Assembly: GCA_964353705.1 (NCBI GenBank)
Contig: CAYGXD010000003.1
Location: 891-64,890, forward strand
Length of the DNA: 64,000 nucleotides
Direction: 5' to 3'
From: an uncultured Eubacteriales bacterium
GTDB lineage: Bacteria > Acidobacteriota > Aminicenantia > Aminicenantales > UBA8522
Every line of letters begins with the position of its first letter. Positions within the stretch are counted from its first letter, which is position 1. Both the position numbers and the translations under genes were made by a program. A model generated the notes under the pieces. It searched no databases. It was given only the letters and a program-made list of their open reading frames with translations, and was not told where the DNA came from. This document shows positions 46,177 to 61,791 of the stretch, piece after piece.

Positions 46177-46184
46177 GGTCTGGT

Positions 46185-47420: not shown

Positions 47421-47590
47421 AAAGGTGCTCCTTTTATTTCAAGAGATTCCGGAATAGCCTTTTTCCCAAGGAAAAAGCGGCCCCAACTAAGAACGGCATC
47501 GGAAGATGCGAAAGCGGCTGTAACTATGAATGTTCACTCATAGATGATATTGAGGGAACCCGCCGTTGTCAATGGACGGCGAAGCCTGCT

Positions 47591-48715
47591 CTATTTCGCG
47601 CCGAAGTATTTGACGTCCTTTTTTTCTTCCTTTTCTGGTGCGGCGTTCGGATCCCATTTTCCAGCCATCCAATCCTCGTATTTTTTGAACATATAGCTGC
47701 GGAACTCTTTTCTGAGTTGAGGACCTTGTTCCGATTGGGCCAGATACTCCTGCATCAGTTTAAGCCGTCCGAGACCGGCCACCTGGATCAATTTCACTAT
47801 GCCGTCATAGGCCTCCCTGTAGGTTTTAGCGGGAAAGGTGACCGTGCGGTCTTTGTAATCGATCCCGGGAACCCCCTCCAGGATGCTGTGGTCGGCCGGA
47901 AATTGCGTCCGAAGCGCTGCCGTAAGCGGTTCGGTGAAGGCCAGATATTTCGCCCGGGAGAGGTTCTCGACAGCCTTTTTCGCTTTTTCCTGTATTTCGG
48001 CATGGACGACATCCAGGGGATAGAGCTCGGCATCGAACCAGTTGATCGCCTTTTTAACGGTGACATACTCCAGCCAGTCCAGGTACTCGAGCTGCACTTT
48101 CAAAACGTCATCCCCCGAGGCAAAGATGACCGGGACGCCGAACCGGCCCCATGAATAAGCGATGATCTCGGTTTCGTTTATGGATTTGCCGTTGATGATC
48201 CAGTCACAACCCCCGTTGTAGGTGTGAGCGATGAAGCCGCTTGAGCCTGTCTTCGCGTGCATGCAGACGACGGCGACGGCATCGTATTTTTCGGTTTCGG
48301 GCAGGTCGCTATAGGGGTCGAAGGGAGTATCTTTGTAGATCACCTGGGCCCGTGGATCGAGTTTGCCAAGATCGACATCGGGTTCCGGATTCCCGCTGCC
48401 GTGGGCATCAGTGACATCGACGACGTCGGCTCCGCCGGCAAACAATCCGGCGATGACGGCGTTGACATCCTGAGTCAGATTGTCCCTGCCTGTTTGATAG
48501 TCCGGATTTCCAAACCCGGTTTGCTCCATGCGGTTGACACCTGAAATTCCCTCCATGTCGTAATAGAGAAGGATTTTGGTCGTCCCGTCCGCATCCGGAC
48601 GAACGGCGTTTACAGTATAGGCGGGAATATCCGTTGCCGCTTTTTGTTCACGGCAGCAAAAAAACAGACCCGCAATCCACATAGCCAGCACGCCTGTCAA
48701 CAACACTTTTCTCAT
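47591..48715 (-). CDS. M55-family D-aminopeptidase (DppA-like) with a C-terminal extension, secreted
   Basis: KILLYYDMEGISGV, TDAHGSGNP and VCMHAKTGS align with the DppA pattern SVDMEGISG / NDSH / GYHA. About 100 extra C-terminal residues. Confidence 0.5.
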   Translation of the reverse strand: MRKVLLTGVLAMWIAGLFFCCREQKAATDIPAYTVNAVRPDADGTTKILLYYDMEGISGVNRMEQTGFGNPDYQTGRDNLTQDVNAVIAGLFAGGADVVDVTDAHGSGNPEPDVDLGKLDPRAQVIYKDTPFDPYSDLPETEKYDAVAVVCMHAKTGSSGFIAHTYNGGCDWIINGKSINETEIIAYSWGRFGVPVIFASGDDVLKVQLEYLDWLEYVTVKKAINWFDAELYPLDVVHAEIQEKAKKAVENLSRAKYLAFTEPLTAALRTQFPADHSILEGVPGIDYKDRTVTFPAKTYREAYDGIVKLIQVAGLGRLKLMQEYLAQSEQGPQLRKEFRSYMFKKYEDWMAGKWDPNAAPEKEEKKDVKYFGAK

Positions 48716-48841
48716 CCCCTGGACTCCTTTCCATCAATATGCTGCTGTCACCATAAGAGCTGAATTATTATAAAAAAATGACACAACAACTTCACTATAT
48801 AAAACAAATCGGCGGTTTTTCGTTATTCGCGGGCGTCCCGT

Positions 48842-49462
48842 TCAAAACAACGCCTGGGAATATTCCCGGAGTCGAGCCCGGCGGCGCCGCGCATCCGGCA
48901 TGCGGCTATCCAGTTCGGCCCAAAAGGCCCGGCCATGGCCTCGGACGCGGGTATGGACGAGTTCGTGAAGGATGACGTAATCGGCCAGGTCCGGCGGCAC
49001 GACGGCCAGGAGCGCGTTGAGTTGGATGCGGCCGGAGGGCGAGGCGCTGCCCCAGACGGTCCCCTGGCGGCGGACACTCAGGCGGCCGGGGCTATAGCCG
49101 TGCTCGCGGGCCAGAGCGTCCAGGCGCTTGGAGAGATACGCCCGGGCGGAGCGGCGGTCCAGACGCTCAGCGGCTTGGACCGTCTCACGGCAGCGGCTGC
49201 GGGCGCGCTCAATATGGGCGAGCGCGCGCCTGATCCAGCCAATCTTGGCGAGGGCGACTCTTCGCGCTTCCTGGAACGGCACGCGCCAGGGGACAGCAAC
49301 CCGGACCCTCCGGGAGGCCCGTACGGTCAGCGAGATGCGGCGGGCCCGCCGGGTCTTTTCGAACAGAACGGGGCCGACACCGTCGAGGCTGAACGTCCGA
49401 GATCTTCTTGGCGTCGCGCGGGGCTCACTGCCTTCAAGCATGGAATCGGCGCCCGTCCTCAC
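48842..49462 (-). CDS. YgjP-like (DUF45 / M48-related) zinc metallohydrolase
   Basis: HELVHTRVRGHGRAFWAEL (HExxH plus downstream) near the C-terminus. Size typical of DUF45. Confidence 0.6.
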   Translation of the reverse strand: MRTGADSMLEGSEPRATPRRSRTFSLDGVGPVLFEKTRRARRISLTVRASRRVRVAVPWRVPFQEARRVALAKIGWIRRALAHIERARSRCRETVQAAERLDRRSARAYLSKRLDALAREHGYSPGRLSVRRQGTVWGSASPSGRIQLNALLAVVPPDLADYVILHELVHTRVRGHGRAFWAELDSRMPDARRRRARLREYSQALF

Positions 49463-49518
49463 GACGCGATGATATTACCGGCCAAAGACAGGAGTCAAGG
49501 ACTCAGCATCCGGAGGGC

Positions 49519-49600
49519 GCGCTCTCAGCTCTCTTCGGCCTTGGGCACCGAGCAGATCTTGTCCCTGTTCGCCAGGTTGATCAGGCGCACGCTGGGCGGG
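49519..49600 (-). repeat. copy A of a GyrA-C-terminal-tail-like segment (3-prime gene-end fragment with stop codon)
   Basis: Minus-strand translation gives ...SVRLINLANRDKICSVPKAEES-stop (stop = revcomp of 49525-49527). About 80% identical over ~75 nt to copy C, with no upstream ORF attached. Confidence 0.6.
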
Positions 49601-49618
49601 CCGGACGGCCTCCGGACA

Positions 49619-49924
49619 TCAGGTCTTCTCCAGGAATTCCTTGAAGCGGGCCCGATAGGCCTTGAAGGCTGCAGCGCCCGCGTCGGTCAGACGGACGAGG
49701 GTTAGGGGGATGCGCCCGCGGTAGGTCTTTTCGATGGTGATGTAGCGGGCCTCCTCGAGCTTGGCCAGGTGCGAAGAGAGGTTCCCTTTAGTCAATCCGG
49801 TCTCGCGCTGAAGGTAGAGGAAATCGGCACTCTCGACGACCGAGAGGATGGCCGTCAGGGCGAGGCGGGCCGGCTCGTGGATGAGACGGTCGAGGCCGGC
49901 CAGGTCGCGAAGGTCAGTGGGCAT
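49619..49924 (-). CDS. winged-helix transcriptional regulator (HTH_34/PadR-like small regulator)
   Basis: 101 aa. ETGLTKGNLSSHLAKLEEARYITIEK is a wHTH recognition-helix plus wing pattern. Confidence 0.55.
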   Translation of the reverse strand: MPTDLRDLAGLDRLIHEPARLALTAILSVVESADFLYLQRETGLTKGNLSSHLAKLEEARYITIEKTYRGRIPLTLVRLTDAGAAAFKAYRARFKEFLEKT

Positions 49925-50561
49925 CGGTACCCTCCGTGCCTCCGGCGTCGGGGCGGGGCGAGCGCCTGAAGTAGACTATGAGGGCGGCCAGGCCGGAGAC
50001 GACCATGGCGGCGCCGAAGAGGCCATAGTAGAGGCTGACCCCCTTGATGTCGCCGAACCCGGACGCGGTGACAGCGACTCCGATTGCGGCCGAGGCCGCG
50101 GCGAGGACGTAGAAGCGGACAAGGCCGACCCTGTTGGCGATGAAGAAAACGGCGACGGCGAACAGAAGGCCGTTCAGAGCGGGAAAGAAGGCCTTGAGCG
50201 ACGGCGAGAGCGTGTAGAGCGCGGCGAGAGAAGCGCCTATGAGACCGGCGGTGATCGCGACGGCGGCGCGACGCTTCGGATTCGGCTCTTTTTTCTTGAA
50301 CGCCACGTAGCCGGTTCTGGGGTAGGTGATGCGGCGCTTGAAGTAGCGCATAAAGCGGCTGACGAGGAATCCGGATGAGAAGATGACGAAGACGAACAGG
50401 ACGCTGAGCACCGCGTTGAGCGGGGAGCCCTCGGGGATGGCCGCCTGGGCGAAGAAATAGCCCCCGAGCAGAAGGAAGATGAGGCCGAGCGCGATCTCGT
50501 TCAGGCCGTCGTCGTAGAAGCTCTGGACGGTCCGTTTCTCGATCCTTTTGATGTCGATCAT
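49914..50561 (-). CDS. integral membrane protein (4 TM) paired with the upstream wHTH regulator
   Basis: GGAG lies 9 nt before ATG 50561 (MIDIKRIEKRT...). Four long hydrophobic helices. Its 3-prime end overlaps the regulator start by 11 nt. Confidence 0.5.
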   Translation of the reverse strand: MIDIKRIEKRTVQSFYDDGLNEIALGLIFLLLGGYFFAQAAIPEGSPLNAVLSVLFVFVIFSSGFLVSRFMRYFKRRITYPRTGYVAFKKKEPNPKRRAAVAITAGLIGASLAALYTLSPSLKAFFPALNGLLFAVAVFFIANRVGLVRFYVLAAASAAIGVAVTASGFGDIKGVSLYYGLFGAAMVVSGLAALIVYFRRSPRPDAGGTEGTDAH

Positions 50562-50748
50562 GTTTTTTCTCCACTGTGGTTTGTAATACAAACTAGTTTG
50601 TATAATAACATGGATTTGGGGATTGTCAAGCGAAATCGTATTGGATTATGCTAAGCGCATATCAAGAAACCGCAGAACGTACCAAGGCCATCGAACGGAG
50701 GATCCATAAACGAAAGGCGAAGCGCCAGGGGAAAAAAAGGGATGGCCC

Positions 50749-50800
50749 TCATCTCTCCTCGGCCTTGGCCACTGAGCAGATCTTACTCCGGTCTTGCCTC
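50749..50800 (-). repeat. copy B of the GyrA-tail-like segment
   Basis: Minus-strand translation gives ...RSKICSVAKAEER-stop. A short (~50 nt) copy directly abutting an IS91-transposase C-terminal remnant on the other strand. Confidence 0.55.
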
Positions 50801-50888
50801 TTCTCGCCTTTTTCCTTTTTTCCGTATGCCCTGCTCCTTTTGCGGCGCCACGATGAAGATCATCGCTTTCCTCACCGCCTATAAAGCT

Positions 50889-51269
50889 ATGTCGCAATTC
50901 GGGAGAGACTACGCACCAACATTAAGAACGGAATATTCATTTGAAATCCCTATCAGTGATACCAATGTTCTGCTGGCCGCCTTTCTGACGGATGGAATCT
51001 GTGCCAAGCTTCTCACCCGCACACGCAAGCGCCGCTTTGATCTCTTCTTCTGCCCCCGCATCCTGAATGAATTTAAACGCATCATAAGCAAGAAGTTCAA
51101 GGCCGGCAGGGAAGAAACCGCCGCCGCAGTCGCCATCCTCCATGAGGCCGTCCAAACCATGGTGAAGCCGGTTACAGCGGATGAAAAGCGGTCCGAAGGT
51201 CACCCCGTTTTTCGCGCGGCATGGGATCGCAAAACCAAGATATCCCGGCCCGCGGACAGGTGTCAATAA
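50889..51269 (+). CDS. PIN_3-type PIN-domain protein (putative TA toxin), inside a mosaic ORF
   Basis: ISDTNVLLAAFLTDGICAKLL...FDLFFCPRILNEFKRIISKKF matches the PIN_3 pattern DTNVLxxA...ILxEYxxVL. The containing ORF (from 50742) reads through the repeat copy and a CSFCGATMKIIAFLTAY transposase-tail remnant. Start is uncertain and no SD is present. Confidence 0.4.
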   Translation: MSQFGRDYAPTLRTEYSFEIPISDTNVLLAAFLTDGICAKLLTRTRKRRFDLFFCPRILNEFKRIISKKFKAGREETAAAVAILHEAVQTMVKPVTADEKRSEGHPVFRAAWDRKTKISRPADRCQ

Positions 51270-51327
51270 CTCGAAATCCGGGGGGCGGGAGCTCCGGGGG
51301 GGATTGTCGGTCCGGACGGCTGAACAC

Positions 51328-51516
51328 TCAGTACTTTGGTTTTACGCCGGCCTGCTTGCACAGCTCGTTGGCTGTTATCCTATCTAAGGATTTATGCCTT
51401 TTCACGGGGATCGTCTTTTTGTCGTTCGTATAAATGGAATGGCTCTTGCCTTCGCGAAAAAGAAAGAACCCGTTTTCTTCGAGGTAACGGATGAGATCCC
51501 GGCGCTTGACGGACAT
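51328..51516 (-). CDS. hicA: HicA-family mRNA interferase toxin
   Basis: 62 aa: MSVKRRDLIRYLEENGFFLFREGKSHSIYTNDKKTIPVKRHKSLDRITANELCKQAGVKPKY. YcfA/HicA fold pattern (...GxxxxRxxGSHxxxx...P.H...L..G.L..I.KQAG). Confidence 0.8.
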   Translation of the reverse strand: MSVKRRDLIRYLEENGFFLFREGKSHSIYTNDKKTIPVKRHKSLDRITANELCKQAGVKPKY

Positions 51517-51735
51517 CTAAATCTGAGCAGGAATCTGCTCCAGCAGCGCGCCGCCCACGGGAATCTCTTTTTTTTGCCGGCGATAGGCCAAGATCATCTC
51601 ATGAAGAGCATCTTGGAGCATGGCTCGGCATTCTTCGAGGGTTTTCCCCTCCGTCACGACCTCCGGCCACTCGACGAGTTGGCCCATGTAACCGGATTTA
51701 ACCTTGATGTATTTAGCTATATAAGTGGAGAACAT
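51517..51735 (-). CDS. hicB: HicB-family antitoxin
   Basis: 72 aa immediately upstream of hicA (stop/start adjacent). GKTLEECRAMLQDALHEMILAY is the HicB N-domain pattern. TATAAT and AAAGGAGAG lie upstream of ATG 51735. Confidence 0.7.
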   Translation of the reverse strand: MFSTYIAKYIKVKSGYMGQLVEWPEVVTEGKTLEECRAMLQDALHEMILAYRRQKKEIPVGGALLEQIPAQI

Positions 51736-52079
51736 GATTTCTCTCCTTTATAAATCCATTATAACGGTTTTTAAAGGGAAAAAGGAGGAAACCCCTACAG
51801 AAAATAAAAAAAGGGCAGACTACCCTGAGAATAAGAATGAGAATAAGAATTTCGTTTTCGGCTGTGGTGGCCGAACGAGCCCTGGGGTGTCGATTTTCCC
51901 CTCCAAACATCGTGGGGAAGTATAAAGGACGACTCAAAAAGATGTCAAGGACAGCTTGGGGGTGTAGGTTATATCCGCAAGGCCTTCCGAGGCGCCTAAA
52001 GCACGGGAAATCACCCAGACCTCTCCTCCCGGTAGAGAGAAGATCATGAAAAATATCCGCTACTGGTCTCGGCGGCCCT

Positions 52080-52677
52080 CAGAACTTCCTGATAGGCTAG
52101 GTGCGTCGGAGGAGGTCTATCGGCGACAAAGCTTAGCTTGAGGTGGCCGATGATGCGATCCACCAAGGCATAATCGGTGAGGAAAGCGATGATCTTCATC
52201 GGGCCGCCGCATTGAGGGCAGACCAGCGGATCAACTTCTTAGACTTTACGGATCATCTCAGCCCCGCCCTTGGAGGGGATGGGCCGGAGCTCCTCCCTCC
52301 ACAACCCGGAGAGGAGAAGACCTCAGGTTTGCCTTCCTGACCTTCCCTCGATGGGCATTGGCATAGAGCCCGTAGTAGCGGACCATGACCTGGCCCCTGT
52401 CAGGAATGGGCGAGGTCACCCGGGCGATGAACTCCAGATAATCCATCGTCTCCAGTTCGGCCGCCTCCCGGCCCCAGCGGTAGCCGACCTTGCCCTCCCG
52501 CTCATCCAGGGAGAGGCGCTCCAGGGAAAGGACTGGCCGGACCATGTATTTCCCGACCCGTTCGGCTTCGATCTTTGTCCGGGCGCGGACCCGGCCGTGG
52601 ACGTTGAAACCACTATGCCGCCACGAAAGGATCCGCTCGACCCACTCCGGGCTAAGCAATCCTCTGCTCACCAGCAA
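52080..52677 (-). pseudogene. IS91-family (Y2) transposase C-terminal remnant, frameshifted
   Basis: ORF 52258..52677 ends ...RYYGLYANAHRGKVRKANL. In another frame just downstream (52143..52232, minus) comes CPQCGGPMKIIAFLTDYALVDRIIGHLKL, the characteristic IS91 TnpA C-terminal tail. No N-terminal HUH/Y2 domain is present. Confidence 0.55.
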
Positions 52678-52925
52678 TTTGACTTTTCAGGTCCGCTGGC
52701 TGAAGCAGCGTTTTCGTCCTTATTGCTCCCTCCAACTATCCCGAGGAAGAATAAAAACTGGCAATAAGAGACGTCAAGCACAACGACGGCGCGCGGGTGA
52801 TGTCGACAAGCCGGACCCGCCAGCGACAGAGTCGGCAGCCGCCCCGGGTTGCAACTTTTTACCAGCGCCTATAAAATTGCCAAGAAGACCAAGTTTCTAT
52901 CGATTTATAGAGGAGGAATCTGGGG

Positions 52926-54125
52926 ATGAATCAGAGAAAGAAAAACGCACCAATTTCTCGCTGTGTTTTGACCGCTTTGCTTTCGCTCTTTCTGGTTTTG
53001 CTTTCGTCGGCCTGTGCAAATAAGGAAGTATCCAAAAACCGGCAGCTTTCACAAATTACCCTGAAATTTAGGGAAAAGCTTCAGGTCTTCAAGAACCAGG
53101 TCGGATTTCCTGGAGCCACAGCGGCATTTGCTTTGCCGGAGGGGCCCTTTTCGTCAGTCGCCGTAGGAAATTCTGACGAGGAGAACAAGATCGAGATGAA
53201 GCCCCTGGATCGTATGCCAGCGGGGAGCGTTGGAAAGGCATTTGTGGCCGCATTGGCCATCCTCCTGGCCCAAGAGGGCAGGTTCAATCTGGACGACAAG
53301 ATCGAGAAGTGGCTGGGCGATGAAGACTGGTTTCCGAGGTTACCCAACCACGAAGATATAACCATCCGGACCCTCTTGAACCACAGGAGCGGCCTTAAGG
53401 ACCACGCCTTTGAGTCTGAAGAATTCGCCCGGGATCTGGGAAAAATGATGGCCACAAACCAGGACGCGGTCATCACGCCCGAACAATTGGTATCTTATGT
53501 TTTGGACATCCCTCCGCTTTTCAAAGTGGGGACGGATTTTCATTATTCAGATACAAATTATATCCTCGTTGGGATCATCATCGAGAAGGCCACACGATCG
53601 TCCTATTATGAGGAGCTAACGAACCGCACCTTGGCCAAGTTTAGCTTAAACAATACTCTCCCCGCGGATAAAAGGGAGCTCCCCGGAATTGTTCCCGGTT
53701 ATCTGGATCCCAACGGTCCATTCGGATTGTCAATAAAGAAAACCATCCAAGATGGACGGTTGATTTTTAATCCTCAGACAGAATGGACAGGCGGGGGGTT
53801 GATCTCGACTTCCGAGGATCTTGCACGATGGGCAAAGCTTTTGTACGGAGGGAAGCTCTCAGCAAAGCCTTATCTGGAGGAGATGTTGGACTTCGGCGGA
53901 TTCCAATATGGGTTGGGGGCAGGATTGAGAGAAACCGAGCTGGGGAGAGCGTACGGACACAGCGGTTATTTTCCCGGGTACAACACGGCTATGGGCTACT
54001 TTCCGGACCATAAAATAGCTGTGGCCATCCAAATCAACAGGGATTACGATGTGGGAGATCCCTCATCCCAGTTGGTTGAATTAGCCAAAGTCGTTATCGA
54101 AGAGCTTAAACCTCGAACCAAATAA
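52926..54125 (+). CDS. serine hydrolase of the beta-lactamase/PBP class C family, lipoprotein
   Basis: GAGGAGG RBS. Lipobox LLSSAC. SxxK motif AGSVGKAF and a YxN-like YSDTNY region. 399 aa. Confidence 0.7.
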   Translation: MNQRKKNAPISRCVLTALLSLFLVLLSSACANKEVSKNRQLSQITLKFREKLQVFKNQVGFPGATAAFALPEGPFSSVAVGNSDEENKIEMKPLDRMPAGSVGKAFVAALAILLAQEGRFNLDDKIEKWLGDEDWFPRLPNHEDITIRTLLNHRSGLKDHAFESEEFARDLGKMMATNQDAVITPEQLVSYVLDIPPLFKVGTDFHYSDTNYILVGIIIEKATRSSYYEELTNRTLAKFSLNNTLPADKRELPGIVPGYLDPNGPFGLSIKKTIQDGRLIFNPQTEWTGGGLISTSEDLARWAKLLYGGKLSAKPYLEEMLDFGGFQYGLGAGLRETELGRAYGHSGYFPGYNTAMGYFPDHKIAVAIQINRDYDVGDPSSQLVELAKVVIEELKPRTK

Positions 54126-54133
54126 TAGGAGAA

Positions 54134-56206
54134 TTAGCCGCCGCCGCCTGTCTTGGCTTTGGAAATCCTGTGCTTGTCGAACCAGCCGATCACATGCTGG
54201 ATTTTGGAGAGGTGATGGCTTGGACGGCTGAAGATCCCGTGGCTTTCTTCCGGGAACCGGACTAGGACAGATTCCACCCCTTTGAGTTTGAGACCCATAT
54301 AATACTGTTCGGATTCAGACATCGGCGTCCTAAAGTCTTGTTCCCCCGTAATCAAAATCGTGGGTGTCTTGACGTTTCCCACCAGAGATATGGGCGAGTA
54401 TTTCATATAGTGCTCTGAATGATCCCACGGAAATCCCGGGAAATTGTTTTTGATCCCCGCGTTCCCAATATCCGAAGTCAGGGTCAGGCTGTACCAATTG
54501 ACGACCGGATAAAGAGCGGCAGCCCCGCGAAACCGGTCGGTTTTCCCAATACACCAGCAGGTCAGAGTTCCCCCCGCGCTTCCACCGGTAATGAAGATGT
54601 TGTCCTCATCTATGGACCCTTTTTTTATGACCTCATCCACGCCCGAGATGAGATCGTAGTAGTCGTCGGAGGGAAACGTGTGGCTCGTTAAGTTGCTGAA
54701 TTCCTCGCCGTAGCTCGTGCTCCCCCTGTAATTGGGATAAAAGACGACATATCCGGCTGACGCCAAGAGCTGATGCTCGATGCTGAACCGGTCCCCATAA
54801 TTATTCCATGGTCCCCCATGTATCTCCAGGATCAAAGGATATTTCCGGGAAGAGCTAAAGTCCGGCGGCTTCACGATCCACCCCTGGATCTGGCGGCCGT
54901 CCTTTGAGCACGAGTACCAAATCTCTTCCACGGCGCCAAGCTTCTTCGACGCCAGAATATCCTCATTGATGGAGGTGATGAGCTTCACCTCTGGAGTTTG
55001 AGGTGTCCCGACCGCCAAATCACTGGGATGGTCAGGCCTCGAATAGGTGAAGGCAAAATGGCCATTGGGAGCCATGGTGTATGAGGCGCCCAGTATAATG
55101 CCGTAGGCCGTTCGGCCGTCTCCGATATTGCCGGCGAGTTTTTTCACCTGGCCAGCCAAAGAAACAGAGGCCAACGAGGTATGTCCTTTATCGTCGTAAA
55201 GAAAATAAAGTTCTTGACTGTCGGAGGTCCACTTTATCAGGTTGACGCTTCGATCGAGGTTTCCGGTCAATGAGCGAGCAGCACTGCCGTCTCTGTTCAT
55301 CACATAAAGCTCCGCGACATGATCCGCTTGGTATTTCTCATCAAATCCGGTGGAGGCGATATATTTCCCATTCGGGGAAGCGGTGGGAGAACTATCTTCT
55401 CCTCTTCGATTGGTTAAGGCCCTGATCTTTCCATCCGAGATTTCTAGCTCGAAGACCTCGGTATCTGATGTTGTGATTTCCCAGTTGTCACGGCGATCTG
55501 CAGACAAAATAATATGTTTCCCATCCGGTGTCCATTCTCCTCCAGGATGATTGAACTTCCCCTCGGTAATCTTTCGCGGAGTTCCGCCCGCTGAGGAAAT
55601 GATGTACAGATGGAGATATCCGGGAACATAGCCGACACCATCGAAGCGGTAAAGCGCTCTGTCTATGATTATAGGAGGCGGAGCCCAATTGGCATCTGGA
55701 GGAGGCGGAGGCAGGGTGGCAATAGCCGGAGGCATGGATAAGTCAACGGTAGCAAAGGTCACCTGTTTTCCGTCCGGAGACCAGGAGGCATTCATGGGAG
55801 GTACGGGCAGATCGGTAAGTTGAATGACCTGGTCGGTGTCTATCCCGCGCTTATAGAGTTGGGCCGCTCCTCCCTTGTCGGAGATGTAAATCATCTGGCT
55901 CCCATCAGGGGACCAACGGGGAGACTTGTCAGCCGAGAGGCCGGCCGTGAGAGGACGGTTCCCGGAGCCATCGAAATCAATTATCCACAGGTTGGAATAG
56001 AACTTATCGGACTTGATATCCGCAAAATTGCGAACATAGATTATTCTTTTGCCGTCGGGGGAAATCTGCGGATCTGATATCCATTCGAAATTGTAGTAAT
56101 CCTGAGCCGTAAAATACGTGGATTGGTCTTGAGCGGCAAGAGAAATGGACCTGGGAATTATGAAAATGAGAAACAAAACAGACATCTTTTTAAAATCTTC
56201 TAGCAT
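54134..56206 (-). CDS. S9-family serine peptidase (prolyl oligopeptidase/acylaminoacyl-peptidase type) with N-terminal PD40 propeller
   Basis: Signal peptide. WSPDGSQMIY/WSPDGKQVTF propeller blades. Catalytic GGSAGG (ITGGSAGGTLTC) plus downstream D and H regions. 690 aa. Confidence 0.8.
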   Translation of the reverse strand: MLEDFKKMSVLFLIFIIPRSISLAAQDQSTYFTAQDYYNFEWISDPQISPDGKRIIYVRNFADIKSDKFYSNLWIIDFDGSGNRPLTAGLSADKSPRWSPDGSQMIYISDKGGAAQLYKRGIDTDQVIQLTDLPVPPMNASWSPDGKQVTFATVDLSMPPAIATLPPPPPDANWAPPPIIIDRALYRFDGVGYVPGYLHLYIISSAGGTPRKITEGKFNHPGGEWTPDGKHIILSADRRDNWEITTSDTEVFELEISDGKIRALTNRRGEDSSPTASPNGKYIASTGFDEKYQADHVAELYVMNRDGSAARSLTGNLDRSVNLIKWTSDSQELYFLYDDKGHTSLASVSLAGQVKKLAGNIGDGRTAYGIILGASYTMAPNGHFAFTYSRPDHPSDLAVGTPQTPEVKLITSINEDILASKKLGAVEEIWYSCSKDGRQIQGWIVKPPDFSSSRKYPLILEIHGGPWNNYGDRFSIEHQLLASAGYVVFYPNYRGSTSYGEEFSNLTSHTFPSDDYYDLISGVDEVIKKGSIDEDNIFITGGSAGGTLTCWCIGKTDRFRGAAALYPVVNWYSLTLTSDIGNAGIKNNFPGFPWDHSEHYMKYSPISLVGNVKTPTILITGEQDFRTPMSESEQYYMGLKLKGVESVLVRFPEESHGIFSRPSHHLSKIQHVIGWFDKHRISKAKTGGGG

Positions 56207-56373
56207 TGAACTCTCCCGTCTTTATCGCCAGGCACTTTCTGATTCGCGGGCTGGTTTCCTGAGCTACGGATTCGGTCCGTATAATAGTTTACTTTGATAG
56301 GAAATGACTGACACGTTCATGGCAATGTCCTTTCTTTAGAAGACGGGGCTCTGTCTCGCGACAACCCGCTCCG

Positions 56374-57042
56374 TCAATCCTGCTGGGCCGCTTTCATCAG
56401 ACTCTGCACCCCGGCTTCCGGACCGCCGGAATAGCCAAACACGGCCGTACCGGCCACAAACACCCGCGCGCCGGCGGCGTAGGCCGCCCGGATCGTGGGG
56501 AGTTCGACGCCGCCGTCTATTTCCAATTCGCAGTGGGGATTGCGGGCGTCCAGTATCTCGCGCACTTGCCGGATTTTCCGCAGGGTGTAGTCGATGAACG
56601 ATTGCCCTCCAAAGCCGGGATTGACCGTCATCACCAATACCAGATCCAGTTTTTCGATGACTTCGTCGAGCGTGGGCACGGGTGTCGCCGGGCAGAGAGC
56701 GACTCCCGCTTTTTTGCCCAGACGCTTGATGTGCTGGATCGAACGGTCGAGGTGGACGACGGCTTCCTGGTGCACGATGATCAAATCCGCCCCCGCCTTC
56801 GCAAAGTCTTCCAGATAACGGTCGGGGTTAACGATCATCAAATGCGCTTCGAGCAAGCGTGTTGTGGCGCGGCGCATCGCTTTGAGCAGCGGCATCCCGA
56901 AGCTGATGTTGGGTACGAAAACACCATCCATCACATCCACCTGAAAGCGCTTCGCGCCGCCTCGTTCCGCGGCTTGCACTTGTTCCTGAAGCTTCAATAA
57001 ATCGGCCGCCAGGATCGATGGGCAGATTTGAGCGGTGGACAT
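56374..57042 (-). CDS. rpe: ribulose-phosphate 3-epimerase
   Basis: MSTAQICPSILAADLLKLQEQV...HLMIVNP...MTVNPGFGGQ...GGV. Canonical Rpe. Confidence 0.9.
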   Translation of the reverse strand: MSTAQICPSILAADLLKLQEQVQAAERGGAKRFQVDVMDGVFVPNISFGMPLLKAMRRATTRLLEAHLMIVNPDRYLEDFAKAGADLIIVHQEAVVHLDRSIQHIKRLGKKAGVALCPATPVPTLDEVIEKLDLVLVMTVNPGFGGQSFIDYTLRKIRQVREILDARNPHCELEIDGGVELPTIRAAYAAGARVFVAGTAVFGYSGGPEAGVQSLMKAAQQD

Positions 57043-57045
57043 TTT

Positions 57046-57762
57046 TCAGATCTTCCGCATCCGGTATTGAATCCCGCTCGCTCCCGCGACGATCAAATCG
57101 GTGGCGAGCCCGATGAACAAACCATGCTCGACGATGCCCGCGCGTGAAGTCAAAGCCAGCGCCAGTTGTCGCGGCTCGGCGATGGGCCCAAAATGACAAT
57201 CCAAGATCATGTTGCCCGAATCAGTGACGAACGGGGTTCCGTCCCGATTTTTGCGGATCGTGTATTTGGCGCCAAGAGATTCGAGATAGCGCGCCTGCGA
57301 CTTCCAACCGAAGGGGATCACTTCGACGGGCACAGGCCAATGTGTTCCCAGGCGGGGCGACGGTTTGGTTTCATCCACAACGATAATCTCGCGTTGGCTC
57401 ACCTGCGCCACGATCTTCTCTCGCAGCAACGCGCCGCCGCCGCCTTTGATCAAGTTCATTTCCGGGTCGACTTCATCGGCGCCGTCGATCGTCACGTCGA
57501 GATCTTCGGGCAAGTCGTCGGGCAGCATGGGAATGCCGAGCCGGACGGCTTCTTCGGCCGTGGCCTTCGAGGTCGCAAAGGCGACGATGTCTCTCAGTTC
57601 GCCCGTTTTCAGCAGTTCCGCGATACGGCGCGTGGCAAAGATGGCCGTGCTGCCGGTGCCCAGTCCAACCTTCATCCCTGAGCGCACGAATTGCACCGCG
57701 CGCTTGGCGGCCGCTTCTTTGAAATGCGCTTCCGGATCCGCTGAAGTCGAGCCTCTACTCAT
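57046..57762 (-). CDS. rpiA: ribose-5-phosphate isomerase A
   Basis: KVGLGTGSTAIFATRRIAEL, DGADEVD and KGGGGAL blocks. 238 aa. Confidence 0.85.
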   Translation of the reverse strand: MSRGSTSADPEAHFKEAAAKRAVQFVRSGMKVGLGTGSTAIFATRRIAELLKTGELRDIVAFATSKATAEEAVRLGIPMLPDDLPEDLDVTIDGADEVDPEMNLIKGGGGALLREKIVAQVSQREIIVVDETKPSPRLGTHWPVPVEVIPFGWKSQARYLESLGAKYTIRKNRDGTPFVTDSGNMILDCHFGPIAEPRQLALALTSRAGIVEHGLFIGLATDLIVAGASGIQYRMRKI

Positions 57763-57764
57763 GT

Positions 57765-57944
57765 TTACTCCGTATAGTCCGCTGCCGCCAGCCGCGCATA
57801 AATCGCTTTGGGCGTTCCCCCGCCGGACACCGCGAGGATAAATCGGCCGCGCTCGGCGATGGCGGCGGCGGCAACAGCCGTGATGAAATCGGCCGCGCCG
57901 GCGATAAAACCCGGTTTATCGGGAAAGACATGCAACTGAGTCAT
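57765..57944 (-). pseudogene. pgl: N-terminal 59-codon fragment of a 6-phosphogluconolactonase (Pgl/DevB, NagB-fold) gene
   Basis: Minus-strand ATG 57944 gives MTQLHVFPDKPGFIAGAADFITAVAAAAIAERGRFILAVSGGGTPKAIYARLAAADYTE, then TAA 3 nt before the rpiA ATG. FxLALSGGSTP...Y..LA is the Pgl N-terminal signature. No continuation exists in any frame. Confidence 0.5.
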
Positions 57945-58041
57945 ATTGGTCTCACCATTTCTTGAACATTAACATAAAAGGCCGCGCGGAACAATTCCCC
58001 AGGCTTGACGGGCGCCGCCGGGCTTAGTCCGAGCCATCTTC

Positions 58042-58308
58042 TCAAATCGCGAAGTCCTTTCCCAACCGATAGGCCTGTTCGAGCCAGGCGCGCCGCGCCA
58101 TCTTCGCGCCCCAGGGGTCGAGCTTCACCTTGATGATCAGCTTGCCGTCCGATGTGCTGACCCACGGCTCATCGAAGACATAAGCGCGAGCGGGGTCGAG
58201 GCCGAGCTCCGCCAGACGGATGCCCCCTTCAATCGTCCGTGTCCGGTCGTCGAGGTTGAAGGCGTTGACGGCGACCCGGCGTCCGAGCGCTTCGAGGGCC
58301 CCTGCCAA
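58042..58308 (-). CDS. small conserved hypothetical protein (about 88 aa), paralog of a gene ending at the window edge
   Basis: Coding sense ...NAFNLDDRTRTIEGGIRLAELGLDPARAYVFDEPWVSTSDGKLIIKVKLDPWGAKMARRAWLEQAYRLGKDFAI. Must start after the kinase stop (58322), so a TTG start at 58308 is proposed. The ORF track's 183 aa version overlaps the kinase and is rejected. Confidence 0.35.
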   Translation of the reverse strand: MAGALEALGRRVAVNAFNLDDRTRTIEGGIRLAELGLDPARAYVFDEPWVSTSDGKLIIKVKLDPWGAKMARRAWLEQAYRLGKDFAI

Positions 58309-58321
58309 TAGCGGTGGCCGG

Positions 58322-61300
58322 CTATCGAGCCCGGAGGGCGGCCAGCCTCTTTCGGGCCTCCTCCACCTGGGCGAGCCCCTGGTCCGCCTCTTTCCAGACC
58401 TCGAGGACTTTCTCATACTGCTTGACGGCTGCCCGGAGCTGGCCCTTTTTCTCGTAAAGCCGGGCCAGTCTAAGGCGGCTGAATGAATGGACCAGGCTGA
58501 ATTCTGTTTTTTCCGGGTCGAGGAGTCGCTCGTATTCGGCAACAGCCTTGTCCAGGTCACCTTGGCTCTCGAAAGCCCTGGCGACAAAATCATCAGTGTA
58601 GGGCATACTCCTCTGAATGATGGTGATCGGGACTGAGAGATTCAGGGCCGGCAGGGAGCGTTTCCGGAATTCCGAGGCGGCCTCGTCCGCCAGGCCACGA
58701 GCCAGAAGAGTCTCCGCGGATAGGAGCAGGTAAACATCCCGTACCTCCCCGATTCCCTCGGAGCCGGCGGATTCGTCGAGGAACGACTTGACCTCGGCCA
58801 GCTTTGACCCGGCTTCGTCCAGGCGGTTTTCCTTGAGGTCCAGAAGACCGAGATAAACTCGGGTCAACGCCTTATTCAAGGGTTCCGGCCGGATCCGGTA
58901 CTGATTGCGGTTGTCATAAAAGGCCTGGACATACTTACGGAAAAGGTCGCTTTTGCCCCATTCATAGGAGATCCATTCCAGTTGTTTGAACTTGCTGCAG
59001 AAATAGGAATAGTTCTGGATGTTCCTGTAGAGATCCCCCGCGCGCTCGAACGCGCTCAGGGCGAGTTCAACCTTTCCCTGGAGAGAGTAGTACAGACCCT
59101 TGAACTCAAGGGCATAAGCCCGCATTCCATCGGACTGGGCCGCGGGGATGAAGTCGTCGATCCAGCGCAGGGCTTCGGCATAATTTTCTCTCAAGGCATA
59201 ACAGTAGGCGATCCGGAACTGGGCGCTGAAATCCGGCTTGATCCGGACAACCTCCTTGAATTTTTCGATGGCCTTGTCCAGCTTTCCCATTTTGAAGTAG
59301 AGTTCGCCCATGGAGTCATGGGGATTGGCGTCTCCGGGCGAAACCGAGGCGTATTTTTTAAAATAGGCAAGAGCTCCGCCAAAGTCGTTCTTGGACGCGT
59401 AAGAATAGGCCAGCCAGTTCATGGCCGCGCCGAACTTGGGGTCGAGCGCTAGGGCTTTTTTAAATTCCGGGATGGCCCGGTCGAACGCTCCTTGACCATA
59501 GTAATACTCTCCCAGGCTGACCAAAGCCCTTTTCTCTTGGGGGTATTCGGCGGCGATCCGCTCGAGCAGGTTAAGAGAACTTTCCGCCTTGCCCTCGAGA
59601 TATCGGGCCGTGAGGGCTTCGGCATAGAGGCCCTCCTTCCCCGCCAGTCTTTTGCCGAATTCCCGCGCCTTTTTAAAGGCGTCCCGCGCCCCCGCAAGGT
59701 CGCTCTGCGCCAGGTTCGCCTGTCCCAAGTAGAAGTAGGCCATGGCGAACTCAGGGTCGAGAGCGACCGCCATTTCCAGAAACCTGCGGGCGTCGGGATA
59801 ATACCATTTCTCAAAAGCCTCCCTTCCCTGGAGAAAGAGGTTGTACGCCTCCATGGATCCGGTCGTGACCTCCATAATGGGTGTGGCGGCGGCCTGTGTC
59901 ACACCCTCCGCCTGGATTCCTCTGGCGATCGCCCGACTCAGCTCATCGATCTGCGTTTTGAGGATGCTGTCCACGCCTTCGCCCCGGGAGCCGGCTGTCT
60001 TGATGAGCTGCTTGGACCTCACATCCAGAACCTTGGCGTCGGTGGCAAATGTATTGCCTCCCTTGGTGAAAGTGCCCAGGATAATCGCCTCAATGCCGTC
60101 CAGCCGGCAGAGCTCGAATCCGAGGTCACTGTCGATGACCTTGACGTTCTCGCGGTTCGACCTTTTGAGAAGGTCATAAAGCCTTTCCCATGTCGTGACA
60201 CGAAAGAACTTTGACTGCTCCAGGCTGGTGATCAGCAGGTTGGGGATCGCGTCCTGGAGATAGTCATAGCTTGGATCACCGGTCTGGTTGCTGAAACTGA
60301 CGACGGCAACGGCCAGTTTCTCCCCGGGAACGGCCGGAGGGTTTCTCCGGAAGGACTTCCAGGCAAAAAACGCGGCCGCCAGGACGGCCAGGAAGGCAAA
60401 AGCGAAAGCCCCCCTCTTTCGCAGCGCTCGGGCCCTGCTACCGGGGGGGAACGGACTCGGCCTTTCCCGGACAGGGCACGTGGAGCCGGTCACGATCGAT
60501 GTCGGGGCTTCCTCCAGGTCCCGGAGGAGTTCCTCGGCGCTCTGATACCGGCTCTCCCGTTTCTTCTCCAGGCACCTGAGAATAATCCGGTCCAGCGAGC
60601 CCGGGAGCTCAGGGTTTATCGACCGCGGCGGCCTGGGGAGCTCAGTGATCTGTTGAGCAAGGATTTCCGGGCGAGAATCGCCTATGAAGGGGACTCCTCC
60701 CGTGACCATCTCATAAAGAATGACACCCAGGGAATAGATGTCGGAGCGTTCGTCGGCTTCCTGTCCTGCGGCCTGCTCCGGACTCAGGTACTCGGGAGTG
60801 CCGGGAATCGCCGCGGCCCCGGTCCCCAAATCCATGATCCGCGCGTTTCCCTCCTGGTCGACCGTGATGTTCGTAGGCTCGAGGTTGCCGTGGATAACTC
60901 CCTGCCGGTGGGCCTCCGCGAGCCCCGCGCAAACCTGTTGGGCCAGCCGGACGCTCGCGCCCAAGCTCAGCCGCTTCGTCATCTGGATCATGCTCTTCAG
61001 GTTCTCTCCCTGGACGTACTCCATGGTGATGTAGTAAGTTTCTTTTTCTTGACCCAGGGGGTAGACACGGCAAATATTCCGGTGGGAAATCTTTCCGGTG
61101 ATCTTCAAGGCGTTCTGAAGCCGGGCGATAGTTCTGCTGTCCGCGGCGATCTCGGGCAGAATGATCTTCAGGACGACCGTTTCGTTGATTTTCGCGTCGA
61201 AAGCCTTGAAGACTTTGCCCATTCGCCCCGACCCCAGGTCTTCGATGATCTTGTACCGGCCGGCAAAAATCGAACCGGGACCGAGCTGGTCACGCGGCTC

Positions 61301-61417
61301 GGCGAGGGACCAGGTCTCGGCTTCAGGGATAGCCTGATCCCGTCCGAAGCGGAAGCCGCACCGGGAACAAAAGCGGGCGCCCTCCGCGTTCTCTGCTTGG
61401 CATAGAGGACACTTCAT
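58322..61417 (-). CDS. Ser/Thr protein kinase with N-terminal zinc ribbon, a TM segment and C-terminal TPR repeats
   Basis: MKCPLCQAENAEGARFCSRCGF, then Hanks kinase motifs (GRMGKVFKA ATP-binding loop, HRNICRV, DLGTG), a hydrophobic stretch FAFAFLAVLAAAFFAW, and about 10 TPR units. Confidence 0.8.
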   Translation of the reverse strand: MKCPLCQAENAEGARFCSRCGFRFGRDQAIPEAETWSLAEPRDQLGPGSIFAGRYKIIEDLGSGRMGKVFKAFDAKINETVVLKIILPEIAADSRTIARLQNALKITGKISHRNICRVYPLGQEKETYYITMEYVQGENLKSMIQMTKRLSLGASVRLAQQVCAGLAEAHRQGVIHGNLEPTNITVDQEGNARIMDLGTGAAAIPGTPEYLSPEQAAGQEADERSDIYSLGVILYEMVTGGVPFIGDSRPEILAQQITELPRPPRSINPELPGSLDRIILRCLEKKRESRYQSAEELLRDLEEAPTSIVTGSTCPVRERPSPFPPGSRARALRKRGAFAFAFLAVLAAAFFAWKSFRRNPPAVPGEKLAVAVVSFSNQTGDPSYDYLQDAIPNLLITSLEQSKFFRVTTWERLYDLLKRSNRENVKVIDSDLGFELCRLDGIEAIILGTFTKGGNTFATDAKVLDVRSKQLIKTAGSRGEGVDSILKTQIDELSRAIARGIQAEGVTQAAATPIMEVTTGSMEAYNLFLQGREAFEKWYYPDARRFLEMAVALDPEFAMAYFYLGQANLAQSDLAGARDAFKKAREFGKRLAGKEGLYAEALTARYLEGKAESSLNLLERIAAEYPQEKRALVSLGEYYYGQGAFDRAIPEFKKALALDPKFGAAMNWLAYSYASKNDFGGALAYFKKYASVSPGDANPHDSMGELYFKMGKLDKAIEKFKEVVRIKPDFSAQFRIAYCYALRENYAEALRWIDDFIPAAQSDGMRAYALEFKGLYYSLQGKVELALSAFERAGDLYRNIQNYSYFCSKFKQLEWISYEWGKSDLFRKYVQAFYDNRNQYRIRPEPLNKALTRVYLGLLDLKENRLDEAGSKLAEVKSFLDESAGSEGIGEVRDVYLLLSAETLLARGLADEAASEFRKRSLPALNLSVPITIIQRSMPYTDDFVARAFESQGDLDKAVAEYERLLDPEKTEFSLVHSFSRLRLARLYEKKGQLRAAVKQYEKVLEVWKEADQGLAQVEEARKRLAALRAR

Positions 61418-61485
61418 CGCTGGCTCGCCTCAGCGCTCAGGTGGCTTCAACCGATACTAAGATAGCATAAAACCTGGGGACGCGC

Positions 61486-61690
61486 TCAGCTTTCTTCGGC
61501 CTTGGCCACCGAGCAGATCTTGTCCCCGTTCTCCAGGTTGATCAGACGGACGCCCTGAGTGGCGCGGCCGACCGCCCTGACCTGTTTGGTCTGGATGCGG
61601 ATGACTTTGCCGCTCAAGGTGACAATCAGCAGGTCGTCTTCCGCGACGCCCAGCACGGCCACGGCCGGCCCGATCTTGGGCGTAGACGAC
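61486..61690 (-). repeat. copy C (longest) of the GyrA-C-terminal-tail-like segment; about 68 codons of a GyrA beta-pinwheel-blade-like 3-prime fragment
   Basis: Minus translation gives PKIGPAVAVLGVAEDDLLIVTLSGKVIRIQTKQVRAVGRATQGVRLINLENGDKICSVAKAEES-stop. GRATQGVxLIxL plus the acidic tail are typical of a GyrA/ParC C-terminal domain. No upstream start and no long ORF in that frame. Confidence 0.55.
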
Positions 61691-61791
61691 GAGGGGTAAG
61701 GAGGTCAGGGCGGAAGTGGAGAGAGATTTGACATGCTGATCCCGGTCGGATAGTCTTTCCTAAAACAAGATCCCTAGAGAAAGGAGGAAAC

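Follow-up and report, generated by a model that had tools for sequence, protein, structure and literature searches.

Tandem accretion at the 3' end of a housekeeping gene is known from ICESt1, ICESt3 and the CIMEs at fda in Streptococcus thermophilus, where the arrays include integrase-less CIMEs, and islands at tRNA genes accrete likewise. To our knowledge, gyrA has not been described as a target of such integrative elements. ISCR1, an IS91-like element, builds complex class 1 integrons in which a partial duplicate of the 3'-conserved segment accompanies captured genes. Campbell-type insertion-duplication and homology-facilitated illegitimate recombination occur in naturally transformable bacteria, mainly in laboratory experiments, and we know of no natural multi-block array that records many such events at one gene end. 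IS91 itself moves by one-ended transposition, with one fixed and one variable end, and its oriIS lies downstream of tnpA and has subterminal palindromes and an adjacent CTTG/GTTC-type tetranucleotide (PMC13181058). Outward promoters are described for ISCR1 (PMC6218425), and integrase-free 'core' defense hotspots are described between conserved genes (PMC10250203, PMC10121019). How defense and accessory genes build up at fixed hotspots without the hallmarks of mobile elements is an open question.

Here, we analyze a stretch of 64,000 nucleotides (the window) from an uncultured Aminicenantes bacterium that carries three fragments of the gyrA 3' end. The best explanation is that these segments are recombination scars and that the DNA behind gyrA is an accretion hotspot in this Aminicenantes lineage; a literature search for a gyrA-linked hotspot returned nothing specific. 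Since each insertion would have left a dated scar in the form of a truncated gyrA end, event order, junctions, and donor-like and empty states become readable from sequence across strains. This opens the mechanism of accretion to testing in an uncultured lineage that branches deeply; homology-anchored recombination, a hidden recombinase, and rolling-circle capture are the candidates. For annotation, the short ORFs of these genomes that are labeled 'DNA gyrase subunit A' should be read as scars, not genes.

Displaced gyrA ends and the blocks between them

A sequence-only reading of the window had noted three same-orientation segments resembling the 3' end of gyrA, and all three were confirmed. 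They lie on the minus strand and each reaches a TGA stop:

61486-61684, minus: gyrA-tail copy 3, 199 nt, 64 codons and TGA; peptide PKIGPAVAVLGVAEDDLLIVTLSGKVIRIQTKQVRAVGRATQGVRLINLENGDKICSVAKAEES, then stop
50749-50785, minus: gyrA-tail copy 2, 37 nt clearly recognizable; peptide KICSVAKAEER, then stop
49525-49609, minus: gyrA-tail copy 1, 85 nt; peptide ending ...VRLINLANRDKICSVPKAEES, then stop

The copy 3 peptide matches Pfam PF03989 (DNA_gyraseA_C; E=4.6e-13, 48.8 bits against a cut-off of 27 bits) and is a C-terminal blade of GyrA that fits the GyrA/ParC beta-pinwheel blade profile. Alignment with the intact gyrA of relatives upheld this origin: the protein is 95-100% identical to the last 64 GyrA residues of L001, L087, L088, L089, L177 and L167 (in L001, L087 and L167, whose contigs contain the whole gene, GyrA is 828-837 aa long), and DNA identity to the gyrA 3' end of close relatives is 84-92%. 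Homology begins at profile position 252 of 450, is collinear with the extreme GyrA C-terminus and stops at the TGA; it is recognizable over 64-66 codons only, somewhat fewer than the 68 or so first estimated. Copy 2 possibly extends about 15-20 nt further, as judged by comparison with L184, where its equivalent measures 52 nt and adjoins a different upstream gene. A 29-nt core pattern with up to three mismatches matched copies 1 and 3 and had no match in any of 100 shuffled sequences; copy 2, with just a partial overlap with this pattern, had no match to it. Chance accounts for none of the three copies. As the sequence-only reading had stated, none is attached to a gyrase ORF, and the window contains no gyrA ORF. 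An 802-aa ORF at 7394-9802 was considered as gyrA and rejected; it encodes an ankyrin/metallo-hydrolase protein.

The copies had been thought to flank one element of about 12 kb. Instead, they mark the borders of consecutive blocks in an array at least 21 kb long, which probably extends from gyrA, a short way past position 64000, to 45100:

63927-64000, minus: gene X (flavodoxin-fold), 247 aa long in L088 and L089; only its 3' end falls inside the window
63876-63923, minus: HicA 3'-end fragment, PEEDLRAHFFEED and stop, directly after the gene X stop
61792-63741, plus: double DUF4438 gene, belonging to the block that is bounded by copy 3 and the presumed intact gyrA
50786-61485, minus: composite block between copies 3 and 2, comprising the next eleven entries as well as IS91 remnants
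58322-61417: Ser/Thr kinase-TPR protein
58042-58290: gene-end fragments, namely the next two
58097-58290, minus: fragment related to the 3' end of a 727-aa gene
58042-58096, minus: orphan gene X 3'-end fragment, last 17 codons and stop, duplicating the end at 63927-64000
57765-57944: 6-phosphogluconolactonase N-terminal fragment
57046-57762: rpiA
56374-57042: rpe
54134-56206: S9 peptidase
52926-54125, plus: beta-lactamase-fold protein
51328-51735: HicB/HicA
50742-51269, plus: PIN protein
49619-50591, minus: block between copies 2 and 1, encoding a membrane protein at 49914-50591 and, at 49619-49924, a winged-helix regulator (HTH_34, E=2.7e-24)
47591-49462, minus: YgjP-like and M55 peptidase block
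45102-47584, minus: DUF3300 and DUF2950 insertion, where L182 has 120 nt carrying tail c0
43241-45100, minus: acyl-CoA synthetase (gene 43241-45034) and promoter, directly after gyrA in empty-site relatives

In L088, a 98% identical contig, 1.17 kb separate gene X from the end of an intact gyrA upstream of it, and L089 has an intact HicA at the position of the HicA fragment. The composite block is matched by L198, which is 99.98% identical over 61522-52429, and the membrane protein/winged-helix block also stands between tails in L182-L189.

The gyrA locus in related genomes

Related arrays take the same form, with gyrA followed by cargo, a tail, further cargo and a further tail. Intact gyrB-gyrA heads the arrays of L001 and L167, and in L087-L089 and L177 an intact or contig-cut gyrA is followed by downstream tails. 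The empty site that the sequence-only reading had suggested seeking in relatives is present in the more distant L091, L094 and L194, where gyrA leads directly to the acyl-CoA synthetase. L182 (94-98% identical to the window) has a fourth gyrA tail, c0, which is 36 nt long, sits immediately before the synthetase promoter and forms the distal bound of the YgjP-like/M55 block. This tail bears the AKASES ending of the distant empty-site relatives and is the oldest scar. A degenerate tail before the synthetase promoter was also sought in the window and is absent, DUF3300/DUF2950 standing in its place. Growth of the arrays can be read from a block encoding MBL-AAT: in L167 it follows intact gyrA, whereas in L179 that same gyrA end precedes it as a tail cut back to profile position 130, and newer RM and SIR2 blocks lie upstream. 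The array therefore grows at its gyrA-proximal end.

The cargo of related arrays includes BglII-type RM, DpnI, GmrSD, SIR2_2, AbiEii, ParE/Phd, YoeB/Phd, HicAB, PIN and NTP_transf_2, an enrichment in defense, restriction and toxin-antitoxin genes that marks these arrays as defense islands or hotspots. Defense-type cargo in the window itself comprises only HicAB and PIN, besides metabolic and peptidase genes. No extra tails downstream of gyrA were found in the GTDB species representatives L008 and L011 (7-10 kb downstream), nor in Bacteroidota or other phyla, the only matches being internal blade self-similarity; for L007, L009 and L010 the sequence covers about 0.5-6 kb downstream of gyrA. As sampled here, the arrays appear restricted to a single clade of Aminicenantes.

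All 26 independent tails are co-oriented, and 22 of them extend to the stop codon. They differ in age. Copy 3 shows 14-18 synonymous and 0-1 nonsynonymous codon differences from the four closest intact gyrA tails, which equals the pattern between intact genes. Because these differences are almost only synonymous, copy 3 would have been functional until recently, and it resembles a working gyrA end whose displacement is recent. Copy 1, with three private amino-acid changes in 21 codons, is by its sequence a decaying pseudogene end. The progressive divergence claimed by the sequence-only reading thus holds, the distal copies being more decayed than the proximal ones. Polymorphisms are shared in a mosaic fashion among the tail copies of one array, as expected if recombination occurs within tails.

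Origin of the displaced tails

We favor, with middling confidence, repeated integrase-independent insertion-duplication by homologous recombination within the gyrA tail as the best reading of these sequences. DNA carrying a gyrA 3' portion together with foreign genes would recombine homologously inside the resident gyrA tail; this DNA could derive from the gyrA locus of another strain, or could be a circle that such a locus released by excision or rolling-circle replication. What happens might be a single-crossover (Campbell-type) insertion-duplication, or might be anchored by homology with its far end joined illegitimately. Intact gyrA would be rebuilt with the new genes now behind it, and the old gyrA end would be pushed downstream as a 5'-truncated, 3'-complete fragment on the same strand. 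Repeated rounds would generate the series gyrA, block, tail, block, tail and so on up to the original neighbor, while displaced tails would decay, eroding from the 5' side. An element-encoded integrase would be unnecessary, and IS91-family rolling-circle elements may supply the tail-carrying circles. Neither circular junctions nor pairs of donor and recipient were recovered. Propagation would be well explained by homology-anchored recombination, but not by itself the first start of a new block right after the stop codon.

The sequence-only reading had proposed site-specific integration. In this scenario, integrative elements with the gyrA 3' end in their attachment site would integrate serially through a tyrosine or serine integrase, and the integrases would later be lost, or mobilization would occur in trans as for CIMEs. 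The architecture is the classic one, with a restored target gene, a displaced co-oriented 3' fragment, tandem arrays, and empty sites in relatives. Homology always ends at one place on the 3' side, the stop codon plus 1-4 nt. In addition, copy 2 has nearly the same 5' limit in the window and in L184 although the DNA that directly precedes it differs between the two, which looks more site-like than random. Against site-specific integration, the 5' limits of the 26 tails (profile positions 45, 130, 157, 204-217, 252, 297, 306-321, 328, 340, 364, 383-395 and 414) are scattered over about 370 nt without att-like classes, as are the tail lengths (36-390 nt). Cargo genes are truncated at some junctions: an MT-A70 gene is cut by a tail 5' junction, and a YoeB gene call overlaps a tail's start. 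The tails are coding fragments with neither a conserved core nor an attC-like structure, and the last 30 nt of decayed tails show no extra conservation of the kind expected of a recombination core.

No recombinase gene was seen in the sampled sequence either. The earlier statement that the window lacks an integrase was correct for the 19 window proteins scanned, and the search beyond the window was also empty. Pfam listed no family of tyrosine or serine recombinases, resolvases and large serine recombinases included, and none of DDE transposases in 13 arrays spanning about 120 kb, the search covering precomputed Pfam lists of the arrays on their contigs together with direct scans. Unannotated array proteins, rescanned as potential hidden recombinases, yielded none; one is DpnI, and the others gave weak deoxyribosyltransferase-like or ATPase matches. 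For an integron, the 1-2 genes upstream of gyrB in L167 encode no integrase (a GTPase and a PIN/antitoxin pair), this check being limited to L167 because the L001 contig starts inside gyrB. Moreover, the duplication process is generic rather than gyrA-specific, since the tail of the 727-aa gene is present in three same-strand, 3'-complete copies in the related locus L172 and that of gene X is duplicated likewise in the window. The ends of the duplicated genes share no common target motif (gyrA ...GCTGAG, 727-aa gene ...GATAGGGA, gene X ...TTTGAG). What survives of the original proposal is that gene ends were displaced where DNA inserts behind gyrA, a site at which a restored target and an empty site were found and an integrase and defined att repeats were not; we regard site-specific integration itself as unlikely.

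Alternatively, the tails could stem from rolling-circle capture by an IS91/ISCR-like element. The features that bear on this possibility in the window are as follows:

52044-52677, minus: pseudogene of an IS91-family (Y2_Tnp) transposase, reduced to the C-terminal half and split between two reading frames (PF04986, E=5.5e-12)
50841-50882, plus: inverted 42-nt copy of the transposase C-terminal region, paired with 52170-52211 (90% complementary), about 55 nt from the copy 2 5' limit
49396-49519, minus: element E, a repeat of about 130 nt that begins 6 nt after the copy 1 stop

The element would lie behind gyrA with its terIS side toward the gene, and replication from oriIS would overrun into the tail. 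Circles with a tail of variable length and neighboring DNA might then transpose beside new genes, or homologous recombination might restore them to a chromosome at a gyrA tail. ISCR1 and the partial duplications of the 3'-conserved segment in complex class 1 integrons are explained by this model too. Of about 12 arrays, 4 contain Y2_Tnp remnants, among them L088, where one lies 200 nt after the intact gyrA stop in the predicted orientation. Element E has a promoter-like TTGACT-N17-TAATAT, palindromes and a degenerate end of the ...TTTCCTATC type. It sits about 75 nt downstream of IS91-family transposase remnants in L088, L172 and L177, the placement of an IS91 oriIS with subterminal palindromes (PMC13181058). 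Element E directly adjoins the stop codon in 6-7 tails and in one intact gyrA, the DNA to its right varies between strains, and its copies, like the tails, are all co-oriented. The recurrence of element E after stops hints at a more specific, transposon-linked process. One fixed and one variable end are the signature of one-ended transposition, and away from gyrA, the valS-ABC locus has a tail and an RM block with antisense IS91 remnants.

However, no intact Y2 HUH transposase was found in any locus or among the 120 listed of 1379 homologues (113-207 aa), only C-terminal pseudogene pieces; no terIS was found, and every copy seen is decayed. Next to most tails, window copies 2 and 3 among them, there is neither element E nor an IS remnant. 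Element E has no consistent flanking CTTG/GTTC tetranucleotide, with GTTC or GTCC about 8 nt past its end in only 2-3 copies. Its first half is also simply the gene X promoter, and it is a candidate oriIS by position and general form only. As a candidate structured RNA, element E gave no Rfam match and no covariation. Rolling-circle capture is thus a tentative explanation, and an improbable one on balance.

Quite doubtful is the idea that the gyrA tail, possibly with element E, is the attachment site of an undescribed cassette-accretion system, an integron-like analogue for defense and toxin-antitoxin genes in Aminicenantes. Its driver would be a recombinase encoded elsewhere or a trans-acting IS91-type rolling-circle enzyme, and the end of an essential gene would act as a portable docking sequence.

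It is very improbable that the arrays are an artifact of metagenome assemblers fusing unrelated contigs through the shared gyrA-tail repeat. Two Logan contigs, L176 and L198, enter copy 3 from either side and break inside it, so that the join across 61523-61653 is seen only in the window assembly; look-ups with the exact DUF4438 and kinase proteins for sequence past 64000 led to nothing but short Logan contigs, which end within copy 3. However, copies 1 and 2 were recovered with both flanks in independent ENA, JGI and Logan assemblies (L183, 99.6%; L187-189, 99.7-100%), several tails are read through by many independent contigs, and the tails of an array are only 82-90% alike over at most 200 nt. 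It is scarcely credible that the tails are functional small genes or regulatory DNA, such as a one-blade GyrA decoy for gyrase-targeting toxins (ParE) or retained terminators: many are called as 37-111-aa ORFs in public data, copy 3 holds a 58-aa ORF, and a ParE/Phd pair lies between two tails in L001, but lengths and starts are arbitrary, no start or ribosome-binding context is conserved, many copies carry frameshifts, lost stops or private nonsynonymous changes, and the synonymous pattern of copy 3, equal to that of intact genes, is explained by recent displacement.

Comparison with described systems

Chromosomal integron cassette arrays resemble the gyrA arrays in their short toxin-antitoxin-rich blocks, a recurring site and growth at the proximal end. 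In contrast to integrons, the gyrA arrays have no intI, their recurring site is a coding fragment of arbitrary length instead of a conserved attC-like structure, and their blocks carry their own promoters and genes in mixed orientations. Core defense hotspots share with the gyrA arrays a variable defense, toxin-antitoxin and restriction cargo beside a conserved core gene, without mobile-element hallmarks. We know of no duplicated gene-end scars reported from such hotspots, whereas the scars of the gyrA arrays record the order and junctions of insertions.

The likeness to ISCR1 complex class 1 integrons lies in partial duplicates of variable length that bracket captured genes, IS91-family sequence beside the conserved segment, a putative outward-facing promoter at the element end, and the proposed insertion by homologous recombination with no integrase. 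Unlike those integrons, the gyrA arrays have only decayed transposase remnants, most blocks have none, and an essential chromosomal gene, not an integron, provides the conserved segment with its end. ICE/CIME arrays match in having an intact head gene, co-oriented 3' fragments between accessory blocks, empty sites and integrase-less blocks. They differ in that no integrase-bearing member was seen in any gyrA array, the gyrA repeats vary in length around no fixed att core, junctions sometimes cut cargo, and the tails of other genes are duplicated as well. With insertion-duplication, the process that we favor, the gyrA arrays would share an independence from any dedicated recombinase, a single homologous anchor, an arbitrary join at the far end, and direct duplication of the anchor around the insert.

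Gene ends of gyrA in the window

The sequence-only reading had described three same-strand copies of a segment resembling the gyrA 3' end. These are present as claimed, all on the minus strand and all ending at TGA:

61486-61684, minus: copy 3, 199 nt, 64 codons plus stop
49525-49609, minus: copy 1, 85 nt
50749-50785, minus: copy 2, 37 nt

A 29-nt core pattern (three mismatches or fewer) matched copies 1 and 3 and had no occurrence in 100 shuffles, and the copy 3 peptide matched PF03989, the GyrA C-terminal blade family (E=4.6e-13). No gyrA gene was found within the 64-kb window. The proteins matched by a search with the 64-residue peptide were all short orphans (37-111 aa), many of which their source labels as 'DNA gyrase subunit A'; the nearest genomes are Candidatus Aminicenantes/Aminicenantales MAGs. 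One related contig (L001) carries, on a single strand, intact gyrB, an 837-aa gyrA, two TPR genes, a 131-nt gyrA 3'-end segment (hereafter 'tail'), a ParE/Phd pair and a 205-nt tail, and its intact GyrA C-terminus (...PKIGPAVAVLGVAEHDLLIVTVSGKVIRIQTKQVRASGRATQGVRLINLENGDKICSVAKAEES, then stop) shares 95% identity with copy 3. Given this array and the Aminicenantes relatives, the segment represents a true gyrA 3' end of the lineage, as had been proposed; the outcome named as refuting that proposal did not occur. Between copy 3 and the four closest intact tails, 14-18 codons differ synonymously and 0-1 nonsynonymously. Because intact tails differ among themselves in the same pattern, copy 3 appears to have belonged to a functional gyrA until recently.

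Array order and growth in relatives

Window 61709-64000 is matched at 98% identity by contig L088, where 1.17 kb separate the end of an intact gyrA from a downstream gene for a 247-aa flavodoxin-fold protein (gene X). The right edge of the window cuts gene X (last codons, 63927-64000). L089 has the same gyrA-gene X order, and by both contigs the window genome's own gyrA very probably lies about 2 kb past position 64000. The sequence-only reading had called for a search for an empty site, and relatives supply one: in the more distant L091, L094 and L194, the acyl-CoA synthetase of window 43241-45034 directly follows gyrA, homology to the window beginning at the synthetase promoter, and this junction is the empty site. 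L182 (94-98% identity to the window) retains a fourth tail, c0, of 36 nt, with the M55 peptidase on one side and the synthetase promoter on the other; the tail's ending, AKASES plus stop, is that of the distant relatives. In the window, a DUF3300 and DUF2950 pair (45102-47584, minus) replaces the 120 nt carrying c0 (L182 2677-2796). From these comparisons the array of the lineage is therefore read as gyrA; gene X, DUF4438; copy 3; kinase ... HicAB, PIN; copy 2; membrane protein, wHTH; copy 1; YgjP, M55; (c0); synthetase.

A 450-nt profile of intact gyrA ends recovered 26 independent tails in 13 arrays. All 26 are oriented like gyrA, and 22 reach the stop codon, with homology ending at TGA plus 1-4 nt. 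Their 5' limits are scattered over profile positions 45, 130, 157, 204-217, 252, 297, 306-321, 328, 340, 364, 383-395 and 414. An MT-A70 methylase gene loses its last 25-30 codons at one 5' junction and a tail begins inside a YoeB gene call; other 5' junctions fall 0-22 nt after a complete gene. An MBL-AAT block follows intact gyrA in L167 and the same tail, cut at position 130, in L179, where RM and SIR2 blocks have been added upstream of that tail; arrays grow at the gyrA-proximal end. Tails within one array share polymorphisms as a mosaic. Decayed tails are no better conserved over their last 30 nt than elsewhere.

Tails accompanied by restriction-modification cargo were also observed away from gyrA, beside other core genes, at a valS-ABC transporter locus (L190-L193, L096, L097), with antisense IS91 remnants immediately upstream, and at an atp-brkB-lpxD locus (L178). 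Array segments seem to have moved there, or the genomes to have been rearranged.

Other genes contribute duplicated ends or fragments as well:

L172 10292-12475: gene for a 727-aa protein of unassigned function
L172 13629-14112, 16552-16826, 18239-18932: copies of its 3' end
window 58042-58096, minus: last 55 nt of gene X (17 codons plus stop)
window 58097-58290, minus: fragment of the 727-aa gene family, fused to the preceding segment
window 63927-63980, minus: the corresponding end of gene X itself
window 63876-63923: HicA end

The three copies in L172 lie downstream of their gene in the same orientation, all complete at the 3' end and variable at the 5' end, and toxin-antitoxin-like and amidase cargo separates them. 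The two gene X ends, 5.8 kb apart, bracket DUF4438, copy 3 and the kinase, and are interleaved with gyrA tails, not nested. From these duplicated ends and other gene fragments, the tail-making process is therefore generic and not specific to gyrA, which is simply the conserved gene heading the hotspot.

Cargo, IS91 remnants and element E

Defence and toxin-antitoxin cargo of related arrays includes BglII-type restriction-modification, DpnI, GmrSD, SIR2, AbiEii, ParE/Phd, YoeB/Phd, HicAB, PIN and nucleotidyltransferase genes, alongside metabolic genes; the cargo of the window is HicAB, PIN, peptidases, rpe/rpiA and a kinase. Directly upstream of rpiA and rpe lie the first 59 codons of a 6-phosphogluconolactonase gene (57765-57944, minus), a truncated pentose-phosphate gene within the accreted region. 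Neither the annotated arrays, about 120 kb, nor a rescan of ten unannotated array proteins showed an integrase, resolvase or DDE transposase family. Transposition-related sequence consists only of decayed C-terminal pieces of IS91-family Y2 transposases. Window 52258-52677 (minus) had 1379 homologues of its Y2 transposase fragment, and none of the 120 listed (113-207 aa) was full-length, suggesting that these metagenomes contain numerous IS91-family copies that have decayed or are cut by contig ends.

A repeat of about 130 nt, element E, is present in more than 20 copies, every one in the orientation of gyrA:

window 49396-49519, minus: element E
window 51229-51288, minus: partial copy
L087 7729-7850; L088 2560-2691; L172 1122-1253 and 18924-19050; L177 6449-6572; L179 1773-1902; L195 426-555; L167 6940-7004: further copies

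It comprises a strong promoter-like box, palindromes and an end ...GGAATTTCCTATC (TTTCCTATC-type), and had no Rfam match and no covariation. It begins a few nucleotides past the stop of 6-7 tails, and does so too after an intact gyrA (L167), the tail of the 727-aa gene and two further genes. Three copies (L088, L172 and L177) sit some 75 nt downstream from a transposase remnant. IS91 has its oriIS at this position, and its one-ended transposition mobilises the DNA on the far side, that of terIS (PMC13181058). The L088 remnant lies 200 nt past the gyrA stop, its terIS side facing gyrA. DNA to the right of element E varies among strains, and the first half of the element alone forms the promoter of gene X. 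Element E may thus be an oriIS end or a mobile promoter module.

Two further repeats were observed. A 42-nt inverted repeat (50841-50882, plus; 52170-52211, minus; 90% complementary) encodes the same IS91 transposase C-terminal stretch in both arms, with HicAB and PIN between, and suggests IS-mediated inversion or a composite structure. A MITE-like repeat of about 200 nt (ACTAGTGTCCCGTCTCG ... hairpins ... CACCACTAG; window 11866-12061, plus; L088 6224-6429), without a significant Rfam match, occupies in L088 the place of copy 3, at most 10-15 nt from the junction.

Origin of the tails and comparison with known systems

Repeated insertion-duplication at the gyrA tail is the best-supported account, with an even chance of being correct. 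Incoming DNA, in which foreign genes come after a stretch of the gyrA 3' end, would recombine within the resident tail, rebuilding gyrA and displacing its old end; the far junction would be arbitrary, and deletions at the 5' side would later shorten the tails. The scheme explains why tails share one orientation, keep their 3' ends and begin at scattered points, why cargo genes are cut and growth is proximal, why the newest tail has diverged only synonymously, why other genes also have duplicated tails and why integrases are lacking. It does not by itself account for the first start of a new block right after the stop, for the frequent presence of element E after stops, or for the different DNA in L184 and the window at nearly the same copy 2 5' limit. 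An IS91/ISCR-like rolling-circle origin of tail-carrying circles, unlikely overall, would also account for the fixed-end/variable-end pattern and resembles how the ISCR1 model explains partial 3'-CS duplications. The site-specific integrative elements favoured by the sequence-only reading, in a CIME-like form with the recombinase acting in trans, are likewise doubtful: displaced gyrA ends and the empty site agree with them, the scattered 5' limits and integrase-free arrays do not. An assembly artefact is highly improbable, independently assembled ENA, JGI and Logan contigs (L183, L187-L189) containing copies 1 and 2 with both flanks, 99.6-100% identical, although two Logan contigs enter copy 3 from opposite sides and end inside it, its join being known from the window assembly alone. 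Functional tail peptides are also highly improbable, with three private amino-acid changes among the 21 codons of copy 1.

That gene ends are displaced where DNA inserts is a classical idea, and the mechanism here is a proposal; the ordered scars make the mechanism of accretion in an integrase-free defence hotspot directly testable. The gyrA arrays share the architecture of known tandem island accretion at a gene 3' end. They differ in having no integrase-bearing member in any sampled array, in arbitrary repeat lengths, in the involvement of other gene tails, in their association with IS91-type ends, and in having gyrA as target and Aminicenantes as hosts.
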